Shown piece after piece: positions 545 to 11,303 of a stretch of 11,303 nt of DNA (its first letter is position 1; each line of letters begins with the position of its first letter). Position numbers and translations under genes: made by a program. The stretch is taken from positions 1-11,303 of the forward strand of contig JBBQRQ010000130.1 of NCBI GenBank assembly GCA_038214755.1. Reading direction: 5' to 3'. Below the pieces are notes generated by a model, which worked only from the letters and a program-made list of their open reading frames with translations, was not told the origin of the DNA and searched no databases. The stretch comes from Verrucomicrobiota bacterium. Its GTDB lineage: Bacteria; Verrucomicrobiota; Verrucomicrobiia; Limisphaerales; CANJXF01.

Positions 545-1807
545 TCAAAGTTCTAAAATTCGTTTCAGCGCAGAACTTTTTTTCAGTGGGCTGATCAGCG
601 CCAGATTCAATCTCTCCGGTCGGAAAAGTTCTCGCGCGATGGCTCGGACTTCACTGACGCGCACGTCGCTTAATCGCTGTTTGACTTCGTCCGGCAACCA
701 GATTTTTCCGTAGCCCAAGAAATGTTCGCCGATCCACATCATTTGCGCCTCGGTGCTTTCGAGATGCATGTCGAGCTGGCCGATGACGTAATCGCGCGCG
801 CGGCGAAGTTCCCCCGGCGAAATTATTTTTTCCGCCAGATTTTTCAACTCCACCGAAATTAATTTCAACGCCTTTTCAACTTTGTCGGTTTCAAGCCCGG
901 CGGAAATGACCAGATCGCCCGTGTCATCGAAATAACTCGCCGCACTATAAATCGAGTAGGCCAGCCCGTGCTTTTCGCGAACGGTTTGGAACAAGCGCGA
1001 GCTCATGTTCTCGCCGAGAATCGTGTTCAACAAACGCAGCGAAAATCGGCGCTCGTCATGCCGCGAACAACCGCGAATGCCGAGGGCGATCTGGGTTTGC
1101 TCCGTGTTTTTCGTCAAGAGGCGGGCGCGCGGTTCGGTCTGCCGGTTGGTCGCGGGAAGGAAGGTCGCGCGTTTGCCGACACGAAAATGCTTGGCCAGTT
1201 TTTTCACCGCTTCGACCACTTGTTTGTGCTGAAGTTTTCCGGCGGCGGTAATCAATGTGGCAGAGGCGACGTAATTTTGTTTTTGATAATCCAGAATTTT
1301 CTGGCGTGTTGTGGCGTCAAGAGTCTGTTCGGTGCCGGCGAGCGAGCGGCCCAACGGTTGATCGGGCCAGAGCGTTTCGTTGAGCAATTCCTGGACGTAT
1401 TGCTGCGGTTGATCGCGATACATCGCGATCTCTTCTTTGATGACGTTGCGTTCGCGATCAATCTCAACCGGAGCGAGAGTCGAATGGAGAAACATGTCGC
1501 CGAGAACATCAAGTAATTCATCGAAACGGTCGTGGCGCGCTTTGGAATAGAAGCAGCTGTTTTCTTCGGAGGTGAACGCGTTCAAATAACCGCCGATTCC
1601 TTCCACGTCCTGAGAAATTCTTTCGGCGGACCGTTTCTTGGTTCCTTTGAAAAGCAGATGCTCGATGAAATGGGAAACTCCGCTGATGTCGGCGGGTTCG
1701 TGACGCCCGCCCACGCCGACCCAAATTCCCAAACTCACGCTCGACATGTGCGGCATTTCCGTCGTGGCAATGGTCAATCCATTTGGCAGGCGCGTGATTT
1801 GATACAT
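545..1807 (-). CDS. M16 (pitrilysin/insulinase family) zinc-dependent peptidase
   Basis: 420 aa. Inverted zinc motif HFIEH in G.SHFIEHLLFKGT, plus LNAFTS, ERNVIKEEI and C-terminal SSRLFQTVREKHGLAYSI, all typical of M16B peptidases. Confidence 0.95.
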   Translation of the reverse strand: MYQITRLPNGLTIATTEMPHMSSVSLGIWVGVGGRHEPADISGVSHFIEHLLFKGTKKRSAERISQDVEGIGGYLNAFTSEENSCFYSKARHDRFDELLDVLGDMFLHSTLAPVEIDRERNVIKEEIAMYRDQPQQYVQELLNETLWPDQPLGRSLAGTEQTLDATTRQKILDYQKQNYVASATLITAAGKLQHKQVVEAVKKLAKHFRVGKRATFLPATNRQTEPRARLLTKNTEQTQIALGIRGCSRHDERRFSLRLLNTILGENMSSRLFQTVREKHGLAYSIYSAASYFDDTGDLVISAGLETDKVEKALKLISVELKNLAEKIISPGELRRARDYVIGQLDMHLESTEAQMMWIGEHFLGYGKIWLPDEVKQRLSDVRVSEVRAIARELFRPERLNLALISPLKKSSALKRILEL

Positions 1808-1818
1808 CGAATTTATTT

Positions 1819-1848
1819 AACCACGGATGAACACCGATGGACACGGAT
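1819..1848. repeat. Short 10-mer tandem repeat (CACGGATGAA-like)
   Basis: aac-cacggatgaa-caccgatgga-cacggat, just upstream of the peptidase start. Confidence 0.65.
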
Positions 1849-1871
1849 TTAACAAAAGCTCCGAGAGCGTT

Positions 1872-1945
1872 GTAGCCGCCGACGTGAGGAGGCGGATTTC
1901 GTCGCAATTCTGAAATCCAATCCGCCTCCGCACATCGGCGGCTAC
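1872..1945. repeat. GTAG-type REP doublet, family B (GTAGCCGCCGACGTGAGGAGGCGGA)
   Basis: gtagccgccgacgtgaggaggcgga (1872-1896) and tccgcctccgcacatcggcggctac (1921-1945) are near-perfect inverted arms. A second copy lies at 2220-2293. Confidence 0.85.
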
Positions 1946-1984
1946 GGTTCTCAGTGGTAATTATTCAGTAGAGAAGGTTGCTCG

Positions 1985-2173
1985 CCCTCACCCTAACCCT
2001 CTCCCCCGAGGAGAGGGAACCGCCATGGACAGATCTTGAAAATTATCATGCGCGTTGTGCCATTCCTGCATTCTGGTCATTCGCAAAAAAAGCTGATAAT
2101 AACCGGCCGCACCAAATTTACAAAAACGCGCAAACGATTCTCCCTCTCCTCGGAGGAGAGGGCCGGGGTGAGG
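1985..2173. repeat. REP doublet, family C (CCCTCACCCYRRCCCTCTCCC...GGAGAGGG)
   Basis: ccctcaccctaaccctctcccccgaggagaggga (1985-2018) and the inverted tccctctcctcggaggagagggccggggtgagg (2141-2173) flank an AT-richer spacer. Same family as 11023-11290. Confidence 0.85.
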
Positions 2174-2219
2174 TCGAGCGTTTCTCTTTTACTGATTGAG
2201 TGGCGCTTGGTCGAGCGAG

Positions 2220-2293
2220 GCAACCGCCGACGCGAGGAGGCGGACTGAATTCCGAATTGCGACCAAGCTCCGCCTCCTCACGTCGGCGGCTAC
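2220..2293. repeat. GTAG-type REP doublet, family B, second copy (inverted relative to 1872-1945)
   Basis: gcaaccgccgacgcgaggaggcgga (2220-2244) and tccgcctcctcacgtcggcggctac (2269-2293). The spacer contains gaattgcgac, the reverse complement of gtcgcaattc in copy 1. Confidence 0.85.
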
Positions 2294-2297
2294 GGAA

Positions 2298-2981
2298 TCA
2301 CGCGAGCGTTTTCGGAGTAACTGCCGGCGGGCCAACCCGTTGTTTATATTCCAAAATAATATTCGCCGCGGCTTGCGGATCATCCGTCACCGTGAACAAA
2401 TCCATGTCGCCCACGCTGATGAAATTATTTTTTTCCAACATGTTTTTTGTCCAGTCCAGCAGTCCCCGCCAGTAATCGCTCCCGATCAGAATCAGAGGGA
2501 ATTTTGGGATGCGCCCCGTCTGCACGAGGGTGAGCACTTCAAAAAACTCGTCCAGCGTCCCGTAGCCACCGGGCATGAAGATGAAGGCGATGGAATATTT
2601 GACGAAGCAAACTTTGCGCGAAAAAAAATAATGAAATTGCAGCGGGATGTTGGCGAATTTATTTCCAGCTTGTTCAAAAGGCAGTTCGATATTGAGTCCG
2701 ACGGATTTTCCTTTCGCTTCGCTTGCGCCGCGATTGGCCGCCTCCATAATTCCCGGCCCGCCACCGGTGATGACCGCGAGATTTTCTTTCGCCAGAATTT
2801 TCGCGATGTCCACCGCGCTTTGATAATACGGATTGTCCGGCGTCGTCCGCGCCGAGCCAAAAATGGTCACAGCCGAGCCGACTTGGGAAAGAGTTTCAAA
2901 CGATTCAACGAACTCCGCCATGATCCGAAAAATCCGCCACGGATCTTCCCGCGTAAACGGAGGCGTGGTCTGAAGGTTCAT
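2298..2981 (-). CDS. LOG family (TIGR00730) Rossmann-fold protein, nucleotide phosphoribohydrolase-like
   Basis: 227 aa with TIFGSART, ITGGGPGIMEAANRGA, GLNIELPFEQ, YFFSRK and the LOG signature PGGYGTLDE. Confidence 0.95.
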   Translation of the reverse strand: MNLQTTPPFTREDPWRIFRIMAEFVESFETLSQVGSAVTIFGSARTTPDNPYYQSAVDIAKILAKENLAVITGGGPGIMEAANRGASEAKGKSVGLNIELPFEQAGNKFANIPLQFHYFFSRKVCFVKYSIAFIFMPGGYGTLDEFFEVLTLVQTGRIPKFPLILIGSDYWRGLLDWTKNMLEKNNFISVGDMDLFTVTDDPQAAANIILEYKQRVGPPAVTPKTLA

Positions 2982-2987
2982 GGAGCG

Positions 2988-3015
2988 AGAATAAAAAGAA
3001 AAACCCGAATGTCGA
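2988..3015 (-). promoter_or_regulatory. Putative sigma70 promoter for the LOG gene (leaderless geometry)
   Basis: TCGACA(3015-3010)-N16-TATTCT(2993-2988)-N6-ATG(2981), with no Shine-Dalgarno upstream. Confidence 0.5.
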
Positions 3016-3056
3016 ACGGGGAATTAAAGTGTCTAAGGCCGACGTGTTTTATTGAG

Positions 3057-3144
3057 GGGTATCATGCCTCCGGCGGGTGCGAAGAGAGTTTCGCCATTCG
3101 ATGTCCGATGTTGGCTTCGCCCCCGCCGGAGGCAGATGCTACCC
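3057..3144. repeat. REP-like inverted doublet, family A, second copy
   Basis: gggtatcatgcctccggcgggtgcgaag (3057-3084) and cttcgcccccgccggaggcagatgctaccc (3115-3144). The internal cattcgatgt is shared with the 369-515 copy. It lies just 3' of the FMN reductase stop. Confidence 0.8.
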
Positions 3145-3154
3145 GCCGCCACTT

Positions 3155-3748
3155 TTATTCTCTGTGTCGCGCCAGAAACCCCGCCTCCGTTCCTGCAAGA
3201 TCGGCGCGGCGTTGATGCGCCAAAAGCTTTCCGTAAACCACGACATCCCGCGCGAACATCTCAAGGCGTTTCTCCAATTGCGGGTTAACAATTTTTCCAT
3301 TTTCCAAATCAACGTCCTCCGAAAAAGAAACACCATACGGCAAAGTCCACGCGTAACATTGCCGGGCGACGGTGCGGATTTGATCAGTCACGGTGAGTCC
3401 TTTTTCGTGCGAGGCGACGAGGGTCGCAAAAAGTTTTCCAGCAAACTCGCGCCAGAAATGGTCGAGAAAACTTTTCATCGCGCCGCTCATTGAGCCGTGA
3501 TAATCGGGCGTGCCGAGAAGCAAAACGTCCGCGTCATCGACTCGTTTTTTGAGAGGTGGATAGGCGGGCGCGTCGTGCGAAATATCCGGATTGTAGAGCG
3601 GCAAGGGTTCGCGCTCGAAATCCACCACATCAACCACGCATCCCGCCGTTTCCAATTTTTTCGCGACATGACAAATCATTTTGCGCGTGACGGATTCACG
3701 TTGCAGGCTGCCGATGACGGCGAGGACGCGCAGTGAGGATTCACTCAT
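3155..3748 (-). CDS. NAD(P)H-dependent FMN reductase (flavodoxin-like SsuE/ChrR family)
   Basis: 197 aa with the FMN phosphate loop VIGSLQRES and GTPDYHGSMSGAMKSFLD. Confidence 0.92.
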   Translation of the reverse strand: MSESSLRVLAVIGSLQRESVTRKMICHVAKKLETAGCVVDVVDFEREPLPLYNPDISHDAPAYPPLKKRVDDADVLLLGTPDYHGSMSGAMKSFLDHFWREFAGKLFATLVASHEKGLTVTDQIRTVARQCYAWTLPYGVSFSEDVDLENGKIVNPQLEKRLEMFARDVVVYGKLLAHQRRADLAGTEAGFLARHRE

Positions 3749-3823: not shown

Positions 3824-3975
3824 GTAGCGCAGGATTGTATCCTGCTGTATCGCCGGTTTGAAACCGGCTGAACGTCGCAACCAGAGAAAGTCTGTAGTTT
3901 TTCGAAAGTCTCTGGGCCTGGCGGTTCTTCGCAGGTTGAAAACCTGCGATACGGCAGGATGCAATCCTGCGCTAC
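3824..3975. repeat. GTAG-type REP doublet, family D (double-hairpin arms), intergenic copy
   Basis: gtagcgcaggattgtatcctgctgtatcgccggtttgaaaccggc (3824-3868) and gcaggttgaaaacctgcgatacggcaggatgcaatcctgcgctac (3931-3975). Homologous to 7328-7462. Confidence 0.9.
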
Positions 3976-5818: not shown

Positions 5819-5990
5819 AAATCCCGAATTCCAAAATCCGAGATCCGAAAGAAATCCGAAGCGCGAAGGCTGAAAGTGGTGCGGAGCTGGGCTGGCCGCA
5901 AAGTGCTTTTCGGGGCGCTGACCGGCAGTCGTTTTCGGCGTTCGGATTTCGGCCTTCTTTCGGATTTCGGGGATTCGGATTTCGGATTTC
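5819..5990. repeat. Inverted pair of heptamer tandem arrays (AATCCGA / TTCGGAT)
   Basis: aaatcccgaattccaaaatccgagatccgaaagaaatccgaa (5819-5860) and ttcggatttcggccttctttcggatttcggggattcggatttcggatttc (5941-5990) are complementary arrays in the tolC-DUF47 gap. Confidence 0.8.
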
Positions 5991-6001
5991 CGCCCAATGT
6001 C

Positions 6002-7510
6002 TTACAACTGGCCGACGGCGAAGCTCAGAGCGTATTGCGCGGAATTGTAATCGGCGATGGCTTTCAAATAATCAAAACGCGCCCGGGTCAAATCCTGTTC
6101 GGCCTGGATATTTTCCAAGACAACTCCCACGGCAAATTCCCTGCGCAATCCAGCGAGACGCAAACTTTCTTCCGCGCTGGTGAGAATTTTTTTGGCCGAG
6201 GCGATCTGGTCGCGCAACGACTCGACTCGGACAAACGCCTCAACCACCTGCCGCCAAATTTCGTCATCCATTTTTGTGGCGGACAGTTCAACTGTCTTCA
6301 AACGGGATTCCGCCGCGCGCGTTCTGCCGAAATCGAACAGGCCGCCGGGCCCGATTTTCCAACTCACGCCGACGAAGTAATCTTCCTGCTCGCCGAATCG
6401 GCTGGGACCAGCACTGCTGTCCCCGCCCAATCCGCCCGCAAAAACTTGCGCGCCGACAGATGGAATGAGCGGGCCATAAACCGCGCCCTGTTTTGTCTTT
6501 TCCGCAGCGGCGATGGAAGCGCGACTTTGTTTTAATTCCGGCCTCATCGAACTCGCCTGCGCGAGGAACGAGCCGAGGGAAACGTTGGTTGCAAAAAGTG
6601 TGAGCGGCATCAACTCGGAATTTTCCGCGACGAGTTCCACCGCAGGATCGAGATGCAGCGTTTGCGCCAGACGCGCGGCGGCCGTGCGCCGTTGCTCTTC
6701 AGATTGCCGCAGCGAAAGTCGATTTCTCTCCGACTGAATTTTCACGCGCAATTCGTCGCCTTTGAAAGTGAGTCCGGCGGAAACCACCTCGCGGATTTGT
6801 CCTTCGTAATTTGTGGAAATTTGCACCGACTCCTCCGCCACTCGAATCGCCGCCTGCGCAAAAAGCAGCGCGAAATAATTTTGCGCTGCCGCTCGCGTTG
6901 TCTCCTGCCGCTGCGCGGCGAAAGCATGTTCGGCGACATTCACCTGCTGTTTGGCAGCGAGGGATTTGTAAATCGCGTCGCCCAAATCCACTTGCGCGCC
7001 GAGCGTCGCGCCCGGCGCATAGGATTGTTTGTGAACGTCAATTAATTTTCCCTCTACGGTTTGGATGAGATTATCGTGCCTTCGGTAACTTACGCCCGGC
7101 GAAAGCCAGGGAAAAAATTGCGCCATCGCGCTGGTGTGATTGGCCCTGGCCTCGTTTAATTTTTCCCGCGCGATTTGGATGTCGAGATTTTGTGCGCTGG
7201 CCAGGCGAAGCGCGGTTGGCAGGTCAATGGTGTAAAAATTCGTTCCAGTTTTGTTTGTATGCGAGACATCGGCTTGCGCAAATAAGGTCGGCGCGAGATT
7301 GAGCCAGGCGACGGCGAGAACGAGAACGTAGCGCAGATTTTTAATCTGCTGTATCGCAGGTTTAAAACCTGCAAAGCGTCGAAAACAACCGGTCCGCTTC
7401 CGAATTTCCACCGTCTTGCCGATTGCAAATCGGCGATACGGCAGGTTGCAAACCTGCGCTACAAAGCCCGCGCGAATCGTCAATCGTAAATCGTCAATCC
7501 GAAGTTTCAT
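6002..7510 (-). CDS. TolC family outer membrane efflux protein with a repeat-derived N-terminal extension
   Basis: 502 aa with OEP features (IDLPTALRLASAQNLDI, RPELKQ, LSFAVGQL). Signal h-region VLVLAVAWLNLAPTLFA. The ATG at 7510 overlaps the MFP stop (ATGA). Confidence 0.92.
   Translation of the reverse strand: MKLRIDDLRLTIRAGFVAQVCNLPYRRFAIGKTVEIRKRTGCFRRFAGFKPAIQQIKNLRYVLVLAVAWLNLAPTLFAQADVSHTNKTGTNFYTIDLPTALRLASAQNLDIQIAREKLNEARANHTSAMAQFFPWLSPGVSYRRHDNLIQTVEGKLIDVHKQSYAPGATLGAQVDLGDAIYKSLAAKQQVNVAEHAFAAQRQETTRAAAQNYFALLFAQAAIRVAEESVQISTNYEGQIREVVSAGLTFKGDELRVKIQSERNRLSLRQSEEQRRTAAARLAQTLHLDPAVELVAENSELMPLTLFATNVSLGSFLAQASSMRPELKQSRASIAAAEKTKQGAVYGPLIPSVGAQVFAGGLGGDSSAGPSRFGEQEDYFVGVSWKIGPGGLFDFGRTRAAESRLKTVELSATKMDDEIWRQVVEAFVRVESLRDQIASAKKILTSAEESLRLAGLRREFAVGVVLENIQAEQDLTRARFDYLKAIADYNSAQYALSFAVGQL
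7328..7462. repeat. GTAG-type REP doublet, family D, in frame inside the tolC-like gene
   Basis: gtagcgcagatttttaatctgctgtatcgcaggtttaaaacctgc (7328-7372) and gccgattgcaaatcggcgatacggcaggttgcaaacctgcgctac (7418-7462). 135 bp = 45 codons (VAQVCNL...KNLRY). Confidence 0.9.
7475..7499. repeat. Heptamer tandem repeat (AATCGTM)x3.5 in the tolC-like 5' end
   Basis: aatcgtc-aatcgta-aatcgtc-aatc, encoding IDDLRLTI. Confidence 0.7.
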
Positions 7511-8712
7511 TTCGCCTCCACCACTTTCACGGGCTGTCCATTGGCCAACGTCATTTTGCCAACCAAAATCACGGGCACATTTTCGGAAACATTTTCGAGC
7601 ATCTCGACGAAAACGCCGTCGTTAAAACCGGTTTTCACCGCGACCTTTTTTGCTTTCCCATCAACGACGGTAAAAACAGACGACCCGTTTTTTTCCACGA
7701 GCACCGCCTCGACCGGCAATAGTAAAGTGTTGGAATGTTTTTCCACGCCGATTTTGGCGATGGCGTACATGCCGGGACGCAACGCGCCGCTGGAATTTTC
7801 CAAATCAATTTCGACGAGCATCGTTTTGCTCGCGTCATCCAGCGCCTGGGAAAACCGCGTGACGTTTCCCACAAAATTTTTTCCGGGCAATTCTTCGACG
7901 GACACCTTCACCGGGAGATTTTTTTTAATGAGCGGAACTTCCGGTTCAGGCACGGCGACTTGGACGCGGACAGTTTTGAAATCCGCAATGGTCAGCAACG
8001 CCGCATTTTGCGGCGCGCTGCCCGAAGTTGCCGCTGGAACAAATGCGCCAACATCAACAAAGCGTTTCGTGATCACGCCGGAGAACGGCGCGCTGATTTT
8101 GCAAAAACTCATGAGCGTTTCGGCGCGATCCAAATTCGCTTTGGCCATCGCGCTTTTTGATTTTACGGTATCAACCGACTGCGAGACGATGAGGTCGGGC
8201 GCTTTTTTTTGCGCGTCGCTGGCGCGTTTGAAATCCAGTTCGGCAATTTCAAATTCAGCTTTGTATTTGGCGAGGTCAGCCAGAAGCTCGGGCACCTCAA
8301 TCTCCGCGAGCACATCGCCGGCTTTGACTTCATCGCCTTTGTCCACGGCAATCGTTTTTAAATAGCCGGTGACTTTTGAGTAGAGCGTCGCTTGCTGATT
8401 GGCGACAACATTGGCGGGAAGAGAAATAGTTCGCAGAATTTCGCCGCGCTTCGGCTCGACCAATTTCACGCTGACCGGCGGCGCAATTTTTTGCGGCAGA
8501 GAAGACTCACTCGGCTTGCAACCGGAAAGAACGCCGAAGAAAACGGGAGCGATTAAAAATATAATTGTAACGCCATGTCGAAGGACCACGCATTTTCGAC
8601 AAAATTTCTCCCGTAACGGAGCGCCGGTTTGCAACCGGCTTTGAATCCATCCGCCGAGGCCAAGCCGATTGGAAACCAGCGCTCCGATCTGAACCATGAT
8701 TGTTTTGCGCAT
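7507..8712 (-). CDS. Efflux RND transporter periplasmic adaptor (membrane fusion protein), probable lipoprotein
   Basis: Motifs KVTGYLKTIAVDKGDEVKAGDVLAEI, ISAPFSGVITKRFVDVG and LRPGMY, with lipobox LSGC after a hydrophobic stretch. Start placed at ATG 8712 (4 nt after the EamA stop) rather than 8820. GTG at 8589 is an alternative. Confidence 0.92.
   Translation of the reverse strand: MRKTIMVQIGALVSNRLGLGGWIQSRLQTGAPLREKFCRKCVVLRHGVTIIFLIAPVFFGVLSGCKPSESSLPQKIAPPVSVKLVEPKRGEILRTISLPANVVANQQATLYSKVTGYLKTIAVDKGDEVKAGDVLAEIEVPELLADLAKYKAEFEIAELDFKRASDAQKKAPDLIVSQSVDTVKSKSAMAKANLDRAETLMSFCKISAPFSGVITKRFVDVGAFVPAATSGSAPQNAALLTIADFKTVRVQVAVPEPEVPLIKKNLPVKVSVEELPGKNFVGNVTRFSQALDDASKTMLVEIDLENSSGALRPGMYAIAKIGVEKHSNTLLLPVEAVLVEKNGSSVFTVVDGKAKKVAVKTGFNDGVFVEMLENVSENVPVILVGKMTLANGQPVKVVEAK
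8617..8686. repeat. GGAG-type REP doublet, family E, in the MFP 5' region
   Basis: cggagcgccggtttgcaaccggctt (8617-8641) and aagccgattggaaaccagcgctccg (8662-8686). It uses the same 17-nt hairpin unit as family D. Confidence 0.8.
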
Positions 8713-8716
8713 ATTT

Positions 8717-9154
8717 TTACGAATGGGGCGAGTAGCGAAGCAAAAACAGGCCGGCGAGTGAAAGCGCAATTCCCAGCAAGCGTTGCCAGTAAGCGGGTTC
8801 CTTAAAAAATAAAATTCCAACCACGGCCATGAGCGCCGCGCCGCCCGCCAGAATCATCGGCACGGCGGAAAGCGGCCCGCCTTTTTGAAAAAGTAAAAAG
8901 AAAAAAATAGTTCCAACTCCGACACACAACCCGGTCAGCACCGAATAGAAAATTCCCGGCCCGCTGGATTTTTGGTTCCATTCTCCCGCGAACCAGAGCC
9001 AGCCGAGATAAAACGCAATGGTAATGGCCGCGCTCGCCTCCACCGTAAATCCACCGAGTCCATCGCCGATTTTGTCCGCCGCCATTTTTGTGAAGATTTG
9101 ATGCAGGCCGTAAAGAATTGCCGCTCCAACCGCATACCAAAACCAGTTTGTCAT
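8717..9154 (-). CDS. Single-domain EamA/DMT family transporter
   Basis: 145 aa with about 5 hydrophobic segments (WFWYAVGAAILYG...FTK, GGPLSAVP, GILFFKEP, LLGIALSLAGLFLL). Start is ATG 9154 (after AAAGG) or in-frame ATG 9169. Confidence 0.88.
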   Translation of the reverse strand: MTNWFWYAVGAAILYGLHQIFTKMAADKIGDGLGGFTVEASAAITIAFYLGWLWFAGEWNQKSSGPGIFYSVLTGLCVGVGTIFFFLLFQKGGPLSAVPMILAGGAALMAVVGILFFKEPAYWQRLLGIALSLAGLFLLRYSPHS

Positions 9155-9158
9155 GTTG

Positions 9159-9335
9159 CCTTTTTTCATGGGCGCATCGTGGCACAACGTCCACAGTAGT
9201 GGGGCGGACATCCTGTCTGCCGTCTGGGGCTTCCAGCCCCAGGATTCGCGGGCAAGATGCCCGCTCGGACAGGCTGGAAGCCCGCCCCACTACATCTGAT
9301 TGGCGGTGGGGCCGAGATGCGTCCTTTTTTCATGG
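9159..9335. repeat. 13-bp direct repeat CCTTTTTTCATGG flanking a REP-containing segment
   Basis: Identical copies at 9159-9171 and 9323-9335, 164 bp apart. On the minus strand each reads ccATGAaaaaagg. Confidence 0.75.
9196..9293. repeat. GTAG-type REP doublet, family F (intergenic)
   Basis: gtagtggggcgg...ccgccccactac with internal hairpins (ctggggcttccagccccag, gcgggcaagatgcccgc). It shares ggacaggctggaagcc with 9654-9669. Confidence 0.85.
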
Positions 9336-11303
9336 TTGAGATTTTTGAAAAATAAAATACGCGCTCTGCGAATCATCCGGGTCAAGCGAGACAGATTTCG
9401 TTTTTTGATTTTTCAAAACGATGGCGAAAACAGAGGGCAGAATAAACAGCGTTGCAAAAGTCGCCGCCGCCAAACCGCCGATGACCGCGCGGCCAAGCGG
9501 CGCGGTTTGTTCGCCGCCGTCGCCCAGTCCGAGCGCCATCGGAATCATTCCCGCGATCATCGCGCAACTGGTCATGAGGATCGGGCGGAGACGACTGCGC
9601 GCGCCTTCGACTGCGGCATCGCTGGAGAGTAGGGCGGGCGTCTCGCCGGACTTGGACAGGCTGGAAGCCTGTCCTACTCTGGCGCGCTCGGCAAAAGTCA
9701 CGAGGAGGATCGCGTTCGCCACCGCCACGCCGACCGCCATGATCGCGCCCATGAACGATTGAATGTTCAATGTCGTTCGCGTGAGCCAGAGCATCAGCGT
9801 TACGCCAGCGATCACGGCAGGAACTGCGGACACTACCACGAGCGAGAGACGCAGCGATTGGAAATTGGCGGCGAGCAAAAGAAAAATAATCACCACCGCG
9901 AGCAGCAAGCCCGTCTTCAATCCATCAAGCATCTGGTTCATCGGCACGATTTGCCCGCGCAGATTCACCGTGGTTTTTGCCGGCGGATCGCCCACGTCGC
10001 GCAAAACTTTTTCGATTTGTTTCGACACGGTTCCGAGGTCCGCGCCGGAAATATTTGCGGTCAACGTGATCAATCGTTGCATGTTGTATCGGTCATACTC
10101 GCCGACAGCGGTTCCTTCGCTGACGTTCGCGATGTTGCGCAGCAATGTGGATTTTCCATCTTTATTCGAGATAGGAACATTTTTGATTTCTTCGAGCGAA
10201 TTCATTTTCGCCGTTGGAATCTGGACTTGCAGATTGTAACTGACGCCGCTGTTGGCGTCGGCCCAATAATTCGGAATTGTAAAACGACTCGAAGCGGTCG
10301 CGGCCACGAGAGAACGGGTCGCGTCCGAAACTTTCACGCCCATCAATCCGGCACGCTCGCGATTGATGGCCACATCCACCGTCGGATAATCAAGCGCCTG
10401 GCCAAACTGAAGGTCGCGCAGCGCAGAGATTTTCAAAAGTTTCTCGCGAATTTTTTCCGCGTATTCGCGGCTGGCGACGAGGTTCGGCCCGGCGACGGCG
10501 ACTTCAATCGGTGTTGGGGAACCGAAGCTCATCACGCGGCTGACGATGTCGCTTGGCTCGAAAGAAAATTTCACATCGGGCATTTGCTCGGAAAAAATCT
10601 GGCGCATCCGCTCCTTCAACTTTTCGATTCTAACCGGCGCGTCGTGTTTCAATTGCACTTGCAGCACCGCTTCTTCCGGGCCGCTGTTCCAGAGGTGAAT
10701 CAGGTTGACCGGGTAACTCGGCGCATGAACGCCGACGAATGCGAGAGTGATGGCGACGTGGTTCGACCCGACTTCGTTCTTGATGAGTTCGAGCGTTTGC
10801 AGCGCGAAGGCTTCGGTTTTCTCGACGCGAGTTCCGGTGGCCGCGCGAAGGCGAACGGAAAGTTGGCCGGCGTCAACTTTTGGAAAAATTTCGGTGCCGA
10901 GTTGTTTGCCAAAAATCCAAATCACGACAGCCGCGAGAAAAAGATAAACGAATAAAACGAGCCAGCGGACGCGGACGGTTTGTTGGAGGAATTGAGAGTA
11001 GCGGGATTGCAGGCGCGCGAAACCCCTCACCCCGGCCCTCTCCCCTTCCGAAGGGGCGAGGGAGAATCGTTCGCCGCCCGTCCTTAAATTCCCGTCTGTG
11101 GTCAAATTCCCACCCGCTGTCAAATCACCTTGCGCCACCAAATCAGTGCGCTCGGATTTCTGATTCGCTAGAGTTGATTCTCCCTCACCAACCAAACCAG
11201 AGGCGGATGTTGAAAGCGGGACGTCCAACCGTTCTTTGGCTGAATACGATTCTCCCTCTCCCATCGGATGGGAGAGGGCCGGGGTGAGGGCGTTTGGTTT
11301 TTC
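9330..11303 (-). CDS. Efflux RND transporter permease (AcrB/AcrD/AcrF-CzcA superfamily), C-terminal half with the 5' end outside the window
   Basis: Motifs LGTEIFPKVDAGQ, FQSLRL..VV.SAVP, LNIQSFMGAI, NAILLV, RLRPILMT and APLGRAVIGGL. The frame is open upstream of 11264 to the edge (EKPNALTPALSHP-M), so the ATG at 11264 is internal. Confidence 0.95.
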   Translation of the reverse strand, partial: EKPNALTPALSHPMGEGESYSAKERLDVPLSTSASGLVGEGESTLANQKSERTDLVAQGDLTAGGNLTTDGNLRTGGERFSLAPSEGERAGVRGFARLQSRYSQFLQQTVRVRWLVLFVYLFLAAVVIWIFGKQLGTEIFPKVDAGQLSVRLRAATGTRVEKTEAFALQTLELIKNEVGSNHVAITLAFVGVHAPSYPVNLIHLWNSGPEEAVLQVQLKHDAPVRIEKLKERMRQIFSEQMPDVKFSFEPSDIVSRVMSFGSPTPIEVAVAGPNLVASREYAEKIREKLLKISALRDLQFGQALDYPTVDVAINRERAGLMGVKVSDATRSLVAATASSRFTIPNYWADANSGVSYNLQVQIPTAKMNSLEEIKNVPISNKDGKSTLLRNIANVSEGTAVGEYDRYNMQRLITLTANISGADLGTVSKQIEKVLRDVGDPPAKTTVNLRGQIVPMNQMLDGLKTGLLLAVVIIFLLLAANFQSLRLSLVVVSAVPAVIAGVTLMLWLTRTTLNIQSFMGAIMAVGVAVANAILLVTFAERARVGQASSLSKSGETPALLSSDAAVEGARSRLRPILMTSCAMIAGMIPMALGLGDGGEQTAPLGRAVIGGLAAATFATLFILPSVFAIVLKNQKTKSVSLDPDDSQSAYFIFQKSQP
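9629..9677. repeat. GTAG-type REP doublet (family F-related), in frame inside the RND permease
   Basis: gtagggcgggcgtctcgccggacttggacaggctggaagcctgtcctac, encoding VGQASSLSKSGETPAL between NAILLVTFAE and AAVEGARSRLRP. Confidence 0.85.
11023..11290. repeat. REP doublet, family C, in frame inside the RND permease
   Basis: cccctcaccccggccctctccccttccgaaggggcgagggagaatcgt (11023-11070) and the inverted acgattctccctctcccatcggatgggagagggccggggtgaggg (11246-11290). No stop in the permease frame. Confidence 0.88.

Follow-up and report, generated by a model that had tools for sequence, protein, structure and literature searches.

Palindromic repeats inside ordinary bacterial genes have several described precedents. 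For Opitutus terrae, the tabulated part of the study by Di Nocera, De Gregorio and Rocco (2013, PMC3733652) gives 70 rows of intragenic repetitive extragenic palindromic (REP) sequences, among them one inside an acriflavin-resistance (RND) protein at residues 511-526, and some genes have double insertions. In the REP/REPIN-RAYT systems, or REPtrons, the transposase RAYT cleaves and transfers strands guided by GTAG, as outlined in PMC8266576. The BoxC/PIT/TM-ECO repeats, with a C-rich stem, a loop, and two G-rich stems forming an intrastrand triplex, were described by Holder et al. (2015, PMC4666352), and in the available portions of that paper the motif of Escherichia coli MG1655 is always intergenic and not found with mobile elements. 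Rickettsia palindromic elements of about 150 bp place a conserved peptide in frame in unrelated genes, according to the description in PMC10969869. Here, the palindromic elements in the genes of an RND efflux pump were analyzed in an 11,303-bp stretch of DNA from a Verrucomicrobiota bacterium, hereafter the window, which is the entire contig JBBQRQ010000130.1 (C130) of a 5.1-Mb assembly in 175 contigs (G000).

The pump palindromes are copies of genome-wide repeat families. They were probably spread by helper nucleases whose genes lie elsewhere in the genome, and those inside the pump genes probably persist as near-neutral in-frame loops, frame-breaking insertions having been eliminated by selection. 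Four such elements, already noticed in a preliminary description of this DNA, are present on the minus strand in stop-free frames of the genes for a tolC-like outer-membrane factor, a membrane-fusion protein (MFP), and the RND permease. The tolC palindrome (7328-7462, fold z of -4.3 against dinucleotide shuffles) is a 135-bp GTAG...CTAC REP dyad. It covers residues 17-61 and lies in the n-region of the signal peptide, directly ahead of a hydrophobic stretch (residues 59-77). The MFP palindrome (8617-8686, z of -5.1) is a GGAG-tagged hairpin dyad at residues 9-32 if translation starts at 8712. Two more elements lie in the permease, a short GTAG...CTAC REP dyad (9629-9677, z of -5.0; residues 543-559) in the loop between transmembrane helices (TM) 10 and 11, and a large BoxC/TM-like dyad with a 225-bp core (11023-11290, z of -7.7) in the TM6-TM7 linker. 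For the TM numbering, a six-plus-six helix count and the topology of AcrB are assumed.

Repeat families were built de novo as profiles from frequent 16-mers, which gave about 40 profiles in the genome. The four palindromes belong to families f6 (tolC, 242 profile matches genome-wide), f8 (TM6-TM7, 203), f55 (MFP, 94), and f9 (TM10-TM11, 86); the f55 matches overlap f6 in part, so that the true GGAG-tagged copies number 67. Three of the palindromes had been said to have intergenic relatives within the window, and these were recovered in the same or linked families: an f6 REP dyad at 3824-3975, a GTAG REP cluster of f13, f15, and f9 at 9196-9293 related to the TM10-TM11 insert, and an f8 dyad at 1985-2173, nested between f1 REP dyads at 1872-1945 and 2224-2293. 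The MFP palindrome has no relative in the window, its GGAG-tagged copies being found genome-wide. The tolC and TM10-TM11 palindromes start with GTAG, end with CTAC, and have hairpin arms in inverted pairing, and thus carry the GTAG tag of REP/REPIN elements. The MFP palindrome is tagged with GGAG and lacks the GTAG tag; it behaves like a REP dyad and is not classed as a GTAG REP. Both arms of the large dyad have a C-rich 9-mer stem, a loop, and two G-rich 9-mers 3 bases apart when the first loop is allowed 3 to 10 bases. Under the strict BoxC/TM-ECO pattern (first loop of 3 to 6 bases), 7 sites were found in the genome and none in the window; because its first loop is too long, the dyad is called BoxC-like. 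The four palindromes are not one class: two are GTAG-type and RAYT-linked, one is GGAG-tagged, and one is BoxC-like and linked to DUF559.

The two permease palindromes are true in-frame insertions between helices, with the added residues as predicted from translation of the frame. All 91 loci examined yielded a permease homologue at 50% identity or more, and at both sites most of the measurable homologues had a shorter span than the present permease. The TM10-TM11 span measures 29 residues in 62 of 71 measurable homologues and 41 here (net +12 residues), and the TM6-TM7 span 60-75 residues in 67 of 70 (the sister genome G001 has 75) against 149 in the present permease (net about +74 residues). 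By hydropathy, the TM10-TM11 insert lies between a helix end at residue 539 and a helix start at 574, and the large insert precedes a helix at 109-137; the Pfam match in the permease begins at residue 93, directly past the large insert. Although the TM10-TM11 palindrome is 49 bp long, it lengthens the gene by only 36 bp, so part of the loop was replaced. No target-site duplication, such as a classical MITE with its fixed-length unit would leave, was evident there by eye, G001 being too distant (pS about 0.6) to set boundaries.

The same loops were occupied in other permeases. Clear palindromes were found in the TM10-TM11 loop of four other homologues (L155, L031, L029, and L189), starting at about the same codon and comprising at least three repeat types, and L185 has an 8-residue insert there with no inverted repeat detected. 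On a quick tree of 49 rows (homologues of at least 60% identity, with the insert columns removed), the six TM10-TM11 inserts, those of the present permease and of L185 included, need six changes, at least five of them forced by well-supported branches, and a single ancestral insertion was not favoured. In G012, from another clade, an f8 dyad with a shorter, partly similar core occupies the same point of the TM6-TM7 linker within one unbroken 1098-residue open reading frame (ORF), which may reflect an independent insertion or a segment transfer. The permease of L029 (G034) has palindrome-type inserts at three sites: behind TM4, in the linker between TM6 and TM7, and in the TM10-TM11 loop. L183 and L189, from records titled Klebsiella, form a tight group with a Verrucomicrobia record in the permease tree, which suggests mislabelling.

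The repeat families are mostly extragenic and of high copy number. After removal of the low-complexity families f34, f35, f45, and f48 and of matches with E > 0.02, 3035 matches merged into 1260 clusters, of which 895 were intergenic, 168 preceded a called start within an open stretch, 131 (about 10%) were well inside genes, and 66 were others; genes were called with our own dicodon model, so these category counts are approximate. Intergenic clusters made up 117 of 135 for f6 and 46 of 77 for f9, and the share inside genes differed by family (f32, 15/36; f9, 19/77; f6, 1/135; f22, 0/66). Genome G001, of the same genus (2.39 of about 4.4 Mb compared), held 0 to 2 matches per family for the 17 families tested, against 46 to 326 here. 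The repeat load thus differs enormously within the genus, and G001, being nearly repeat-free, supplies the empty sites. In 60 clusters both flanks matched one and the same G001 protein; of these, 54 left the frame intact, 3 introduced a stop, and 3 a frameshift; random insertion of intergenic clusters would leave the frame intact 15% of the time, compared with the 90% seen. Of the frame-intact clusters, 50 add 6 to 80 residues.

Genes with inserts are under ordinary purifying constraint. Median pN/pS (uncorrected proportions against G001, 2 of 829 pairs dropped for length) was 0.215 for 43 insert-bearing genes and 0.195 for 784 others (p = 0.17); relaxed selection on insert-bearing genes was not seen. 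The values for the pump genes were 0.26, 0.24, 0.20, and 0.09. Together with the frame counts and the position of the permease inserts between helices, these values bear out the proposal that the families colonise permissive protein sites while the genes stay intact. The accompanying expectation that coding copies would be enriched for lengths divisible by three failed: 6 of 28 coding GTAG dyads had such lengths versus 62 of 196 intergenic ones (p = 0.38), and 0 of 5 versus 10 of 47 for f8 dyads. What decides the frame is not palindrome length but the full stretch that was exchanged, flanking bases included. The stop-making GTAG phase occurred in 0 of 28 coding copies; it is an artefact of selecting coding copies and was not used as evidence.

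Contig C130 ends within the large f8 dyad, and the N-terminal half of the permease lies on contig C135, which overlaps the window end by 101 identical base pairs. Beyond the overlap, C135 has a different core, 83% identical over 281 bp, of equal length, and also open in the permease frame, and then enters the end of an unrelated gene (GC content 63% versus 55%). This tail (9540-9872) is a 3' gene end with no other match in the assembly, whose peptide we take to be methylmalonyl-CoA-mutase-like. Both cores (11060-11200 in the window and 9360-9480 in C135) are of the same length, are identical over the first 101 bp, and show degenerate 18-bp (6-residue) units; beyond the arms, the TM6-TM7 core had no genome match other than the C135 version. 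The contig end, the differing core, and the GC-richer gene end would be expected if the large-insert permease were an assembly or strain-mixture artefact or if the gene were truly split at the repeat. We regard this as very improbable, given that both cores are equally long and open in the permease frame, that both permease halves are under purifying selection, and that the same kind of dyad occupies the same place in the unbroken ORF of G012. A contig from run X1 tracks the N-terminal half through the C135 core with zero differences and departs exactly at the end of the dyad, where the depth on C135 drops to zero; this points to a chimeric C135 tail and away from a split gene. The likely explanation is that the population has two versions of the insert and that a repeat arm mediated the chimeric join of the C135 tail.

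The genome contains 17 matches to Y1_Tnp, the RAYT domain, and a single DUF559 gene, and both kinds of gene are associated with the families found in the pump. Dyads of f6 flank a RAYT gene on contig C10, and the tolC palindrome aligns end to end with the upstream one. Members of f9 and f21 flank a RAYT gene on C64, and f13, f15, and f9 one on C33; an arm of the TM10-TM11 palindrome corresponds at 23 of 25 bases to the REP beside the C64 gene. Two f55 matches at C10 are the inner hairpin of f6, and another GGAG-tagged family, f5, flanks the RAYT gene on C13. The DUF559 gene on C14 is flanked by f8 dyads. At about 1540-3390 of that contig (L244), at least five tandem f8 dyads precede the gene and one arm follows it. 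Among relatives, 19 full-length DUF559 matches were found, 3 of them without loci; of the 16 examined, which include the present genome, 10 had an f8 arm at a distance of no more than 400 bp, compared with 0 of 14 weak matches.

We infer that the RAYT and DUF559 proteins moved the repeats and that the inserts are translated and neutral. The families would have expanded in this lineage through RAYT proteins, by GTAG-guided single-strand cutting and strand transfer, and probably through DUF559, and genes would receive some insertions with flanking replacement. Selection would purge the ones that disrupt the frame or hit folded cores, and the ones in cytoplasmic loops and signal n-regions would stay as near-neutral peptide. 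A tentative extension, which we rate as rather less probable than its denial, is that BoxC-like repeats are non-autonomous partners of DUF559 (Vsr-like) nuclease cassettes, forming a second REP-like system beside RAYT, that both systems jointly refill a few fixed loops of this permease family, and that the 60-residue core of the TM6-TM7 insert turns over rapidly in 18-bp units with the frame preserved. It draws on the at least five independent gains at one TM10-TM11 codon and on the two distant lineages with a BoxC-like dyad at one TM6-TM7 position and, if true, would amount to an ongoing loop generator.

Helper genes within ORFs suggest another origin, in which whole helper-gene cassettes (RAYT or DUF559 plus repeats) first entered the genes in frame and later lost the enzyme by deletion between the repeats, leaving the intragenic dyads behind. 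Three ORFs contain full RAYT domains with REPs in their reading frame, one of 1440 residues (C33, 16136-16378), one of 970 residues (C64, 10402-10626), and one of 1003 residues (C88, 19561-19815). The C64 cassette and the TM10-TM11 insert encode the same VGQASSL peptide, and in relatives some long ORFs (718 residues in G013) include DUF559 domains together with f8 arms. Against this, none of the 91 permease homologues has a cassette-sized insert, the largest gap among those listed being 33 residues, and the TM6-TM7 core shares nothing with the rest of the genome save its C135 version. The cassette origin is considered unlikely.

Several observations weigh against spread by helper nucleases with near-neutral persistence. 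Four of the 54 frame-intact clusters give no net gain of residues, and the 54 of 60 covers only well-conserved flanks, so that decayed, broken genes are missed. The C10 RAYT gene beside the f6 dyads has an internal stop, and the GGAG-tagged MFP family has no true copy beside any of the 17 Y1_Tnp matches. The recurrence count depends on the quick tree. The pump holds 3 clusters in about 2100 codons versus 0.24 expected (P = 0.002, post hoc), an excess that pure chance does not explain well. The two remaining points, on the MFP start and on upstream palindromes across the genome, are given with the N-termini below.

Insert density above the genome average, the repeated hits to the same permease loops in relatives, and the coexistence of two equal-length cores could also mean that the inserts are selected for a function, whether mRNA-hairpin tuning of translation or membrane insertion or recombination points that vary the pump. 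A selected function is nevertheless very unlikely, as the same loop is filled by differing families, lengths, and peptides, and the TM10-TM11 loop is empty in 62 of 71 homologues, the nearest included. Long genes hold more inserts per residue, so that permissive loops explain the recurrence. Inserts were present in 136 of 4394 genes, 17 with two and 3 with three, and 23 four-gene windows on 11 contigs had at least three. Several such insert clusters exist, and the pump is no special target among them.

For tolC and MFP, the question is whether the palindromes are coding or belong to a leader. The tolC gene begins at ATG 7510, which overlaps the MFP stop codon (ATGA) behind GGAGG, and orthologues start at the same coupled place; no ATG, GTG, or TTG occurs in frame between the end of the palindrome and the hydrophobic stretch. 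The shared coupled start and the lack of an alternative start before the hydrophobic stretch make translation of the tolC palindrome likely on sequence grounds. The tolC N-terminus exceeds that of G001 and G005 by 54 residues. The dyad accounts for 45 of these, and four 7-bp tandem units (7472-7499, minus strand), a second kind of in-frame repeat, for about 9; the first 61 residues hold 15 Lys or Arg. Several tolC orthologues also begin with heptamer-like peptides, and heptamer tandem arrays occur in the window as inverted pairs between genes at 5819-5989 and 408-474.

The MFP start may be ATG 8712, ATG 8697, or GTG 8589. Either ATG includes the palindrome, and the GTG leaves it out and yields an ordinary 24-residue lipoprotein signal, resembling the 21-residue signal of G001, so the MFP palindrome may lie outside the coding sequence. 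Scoring of Shine-Dalgarno motifs at the MFP starts was uninformative, such motifs being found at only 204 of 2645 called starts. Among upstream palindromes genome-wide, considered as N-terminal extensions, the gene frame was open in 114 of 545, with 104 and 157 for the other frames, so there is no open-frame bias. It is accordingly conceivable, at a little under an even chance, that the N-terminal palindromes, that of MFP certainly and that of tolC possibly, are noncoding leader RNA hairpins and only the permease inserts are protein-coding, and a noncoding case for many 5' REPs was argued in the relevant part of Di Nocera 2013 (PMC3733652). The tolC start, coupled to the MFP stop as in orthologues and with no in-frame replacement after the palindrome, speaks against this, as do the MFP orthologues of G003, G005, and L155, in which palindrome-like peptides follow the first Met ahead of the h-region. 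The suggestion that extra residues coincide with the palindromes in orthologue alignments thus stands for both permease sites and, as likely, for tolC; for MFP it fails to hold if GTG 8589 is the start. The extra residues of tolC and MFP would be cleaved with the signal peptide and so be absent from the mature proteins.

The remaining features of the window provide the setting. From the ORF list and Pfam matches, the minus strand carries the C-terminal half of the RND permease (TM7-TM12; 9330-11303, ACR_tran), an EamA-like transporter gene (8717-9169, EamA and a gene call), MFP (7507-8712, HlyD_D23), and the outer-membrane factor (6002-7510, 502 residues, OEP). The closest named relatives of the permease are Verrucomicrobiota records. 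The only sequencing run found to contain this DNA is a sediment metagenome, which may be the source sample. The EamA-like gene between permease and MFP is free of repeats, and no EamA match was found at orthologous loci at an E value of 1e-20 among the first 12 loci fetched. The M16 peptidase, LOG, FMN reductase, PiT, and DUF47 genes of the window likewise gave no match in the profile search, as had been noted before.

In-frame REPs inside genes are already published for Opitutus terrae in the part of PMC3733652 considered here, and the present locus is a further example; as the phenomenon is known, the value of the locus is modest. Slightly beyond what is in print, within the literature searched, are a frame filter measured against an empty sister genome, repeated colonisation of a single loop, and a BoxC-like, DUF559-linked dyad in a gene. 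The pair of a repeat-rich and a nearly repeat-free sister genome measures the filtering by selection, and the locus shows in which loops an RND permease tolerates foreign sequence. Such inserts also lead to wrong start-site calls and to broken or misjoined assemblies, as in this case. No paper linking DUF559 with BoxC repeats was found in a search of the openly available literature; if shown biochemically, the link would assign a role both to a repeat that lacks an explanation and to a functionally uncharacterised domain.

Compared with the known systems, the GTAG-type elements of the pump resemble REP/REPIN-RAYT as summarised in PMC8266576 in the GTAG at the hairpin foot, the inverted dyads, and the cognate Y1 HUH transposase genes with the same repeats. 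They differ in that about 10% of clusters lie in genes and that the helper of f6 is interrupted by a stop. Of the other two families, that of MFP has a GGAG tag and yielded no helper, and f8 is without the GTAG tag. The arms at 11023-11290 share with the BoxC/TM-ECO repeats, as defined in the available text of PMC4666352, a type B CCG second loop and an inverted pair; their first loops measure 7 and 9 bases versus the published 3-6, and unlike E. coli BoxC as described there, the f8 dyad lies inside a gene and f8 flanks DUF559 genes. Rickettsia palindromic elements, taken from their description in PMC10969869, are similar as in-frame palindromes in unrelated intact genes with a predicted extra peptide; here several unrelated families with variable cores add a net 0 to 80 residues. 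They are the older precedent and had been cited as the best-known one, but the intragenic GTAG REPs of a verrucomicrobium, an RND permease included, are closer (PMC3733652). In the tabulated data of that study and at the present locus alike, GTAG...CTAC dyads are in frame in ordinary verrucomicrobial genes, with the same doubts about 5' copies. The present genome has other repeat sequences and more families (about 40 profiles), and to that description are added a comparison with an empty sister genome, a count of frames that survived insertion, pN/pS values, and a tree on which independent gains were counted.

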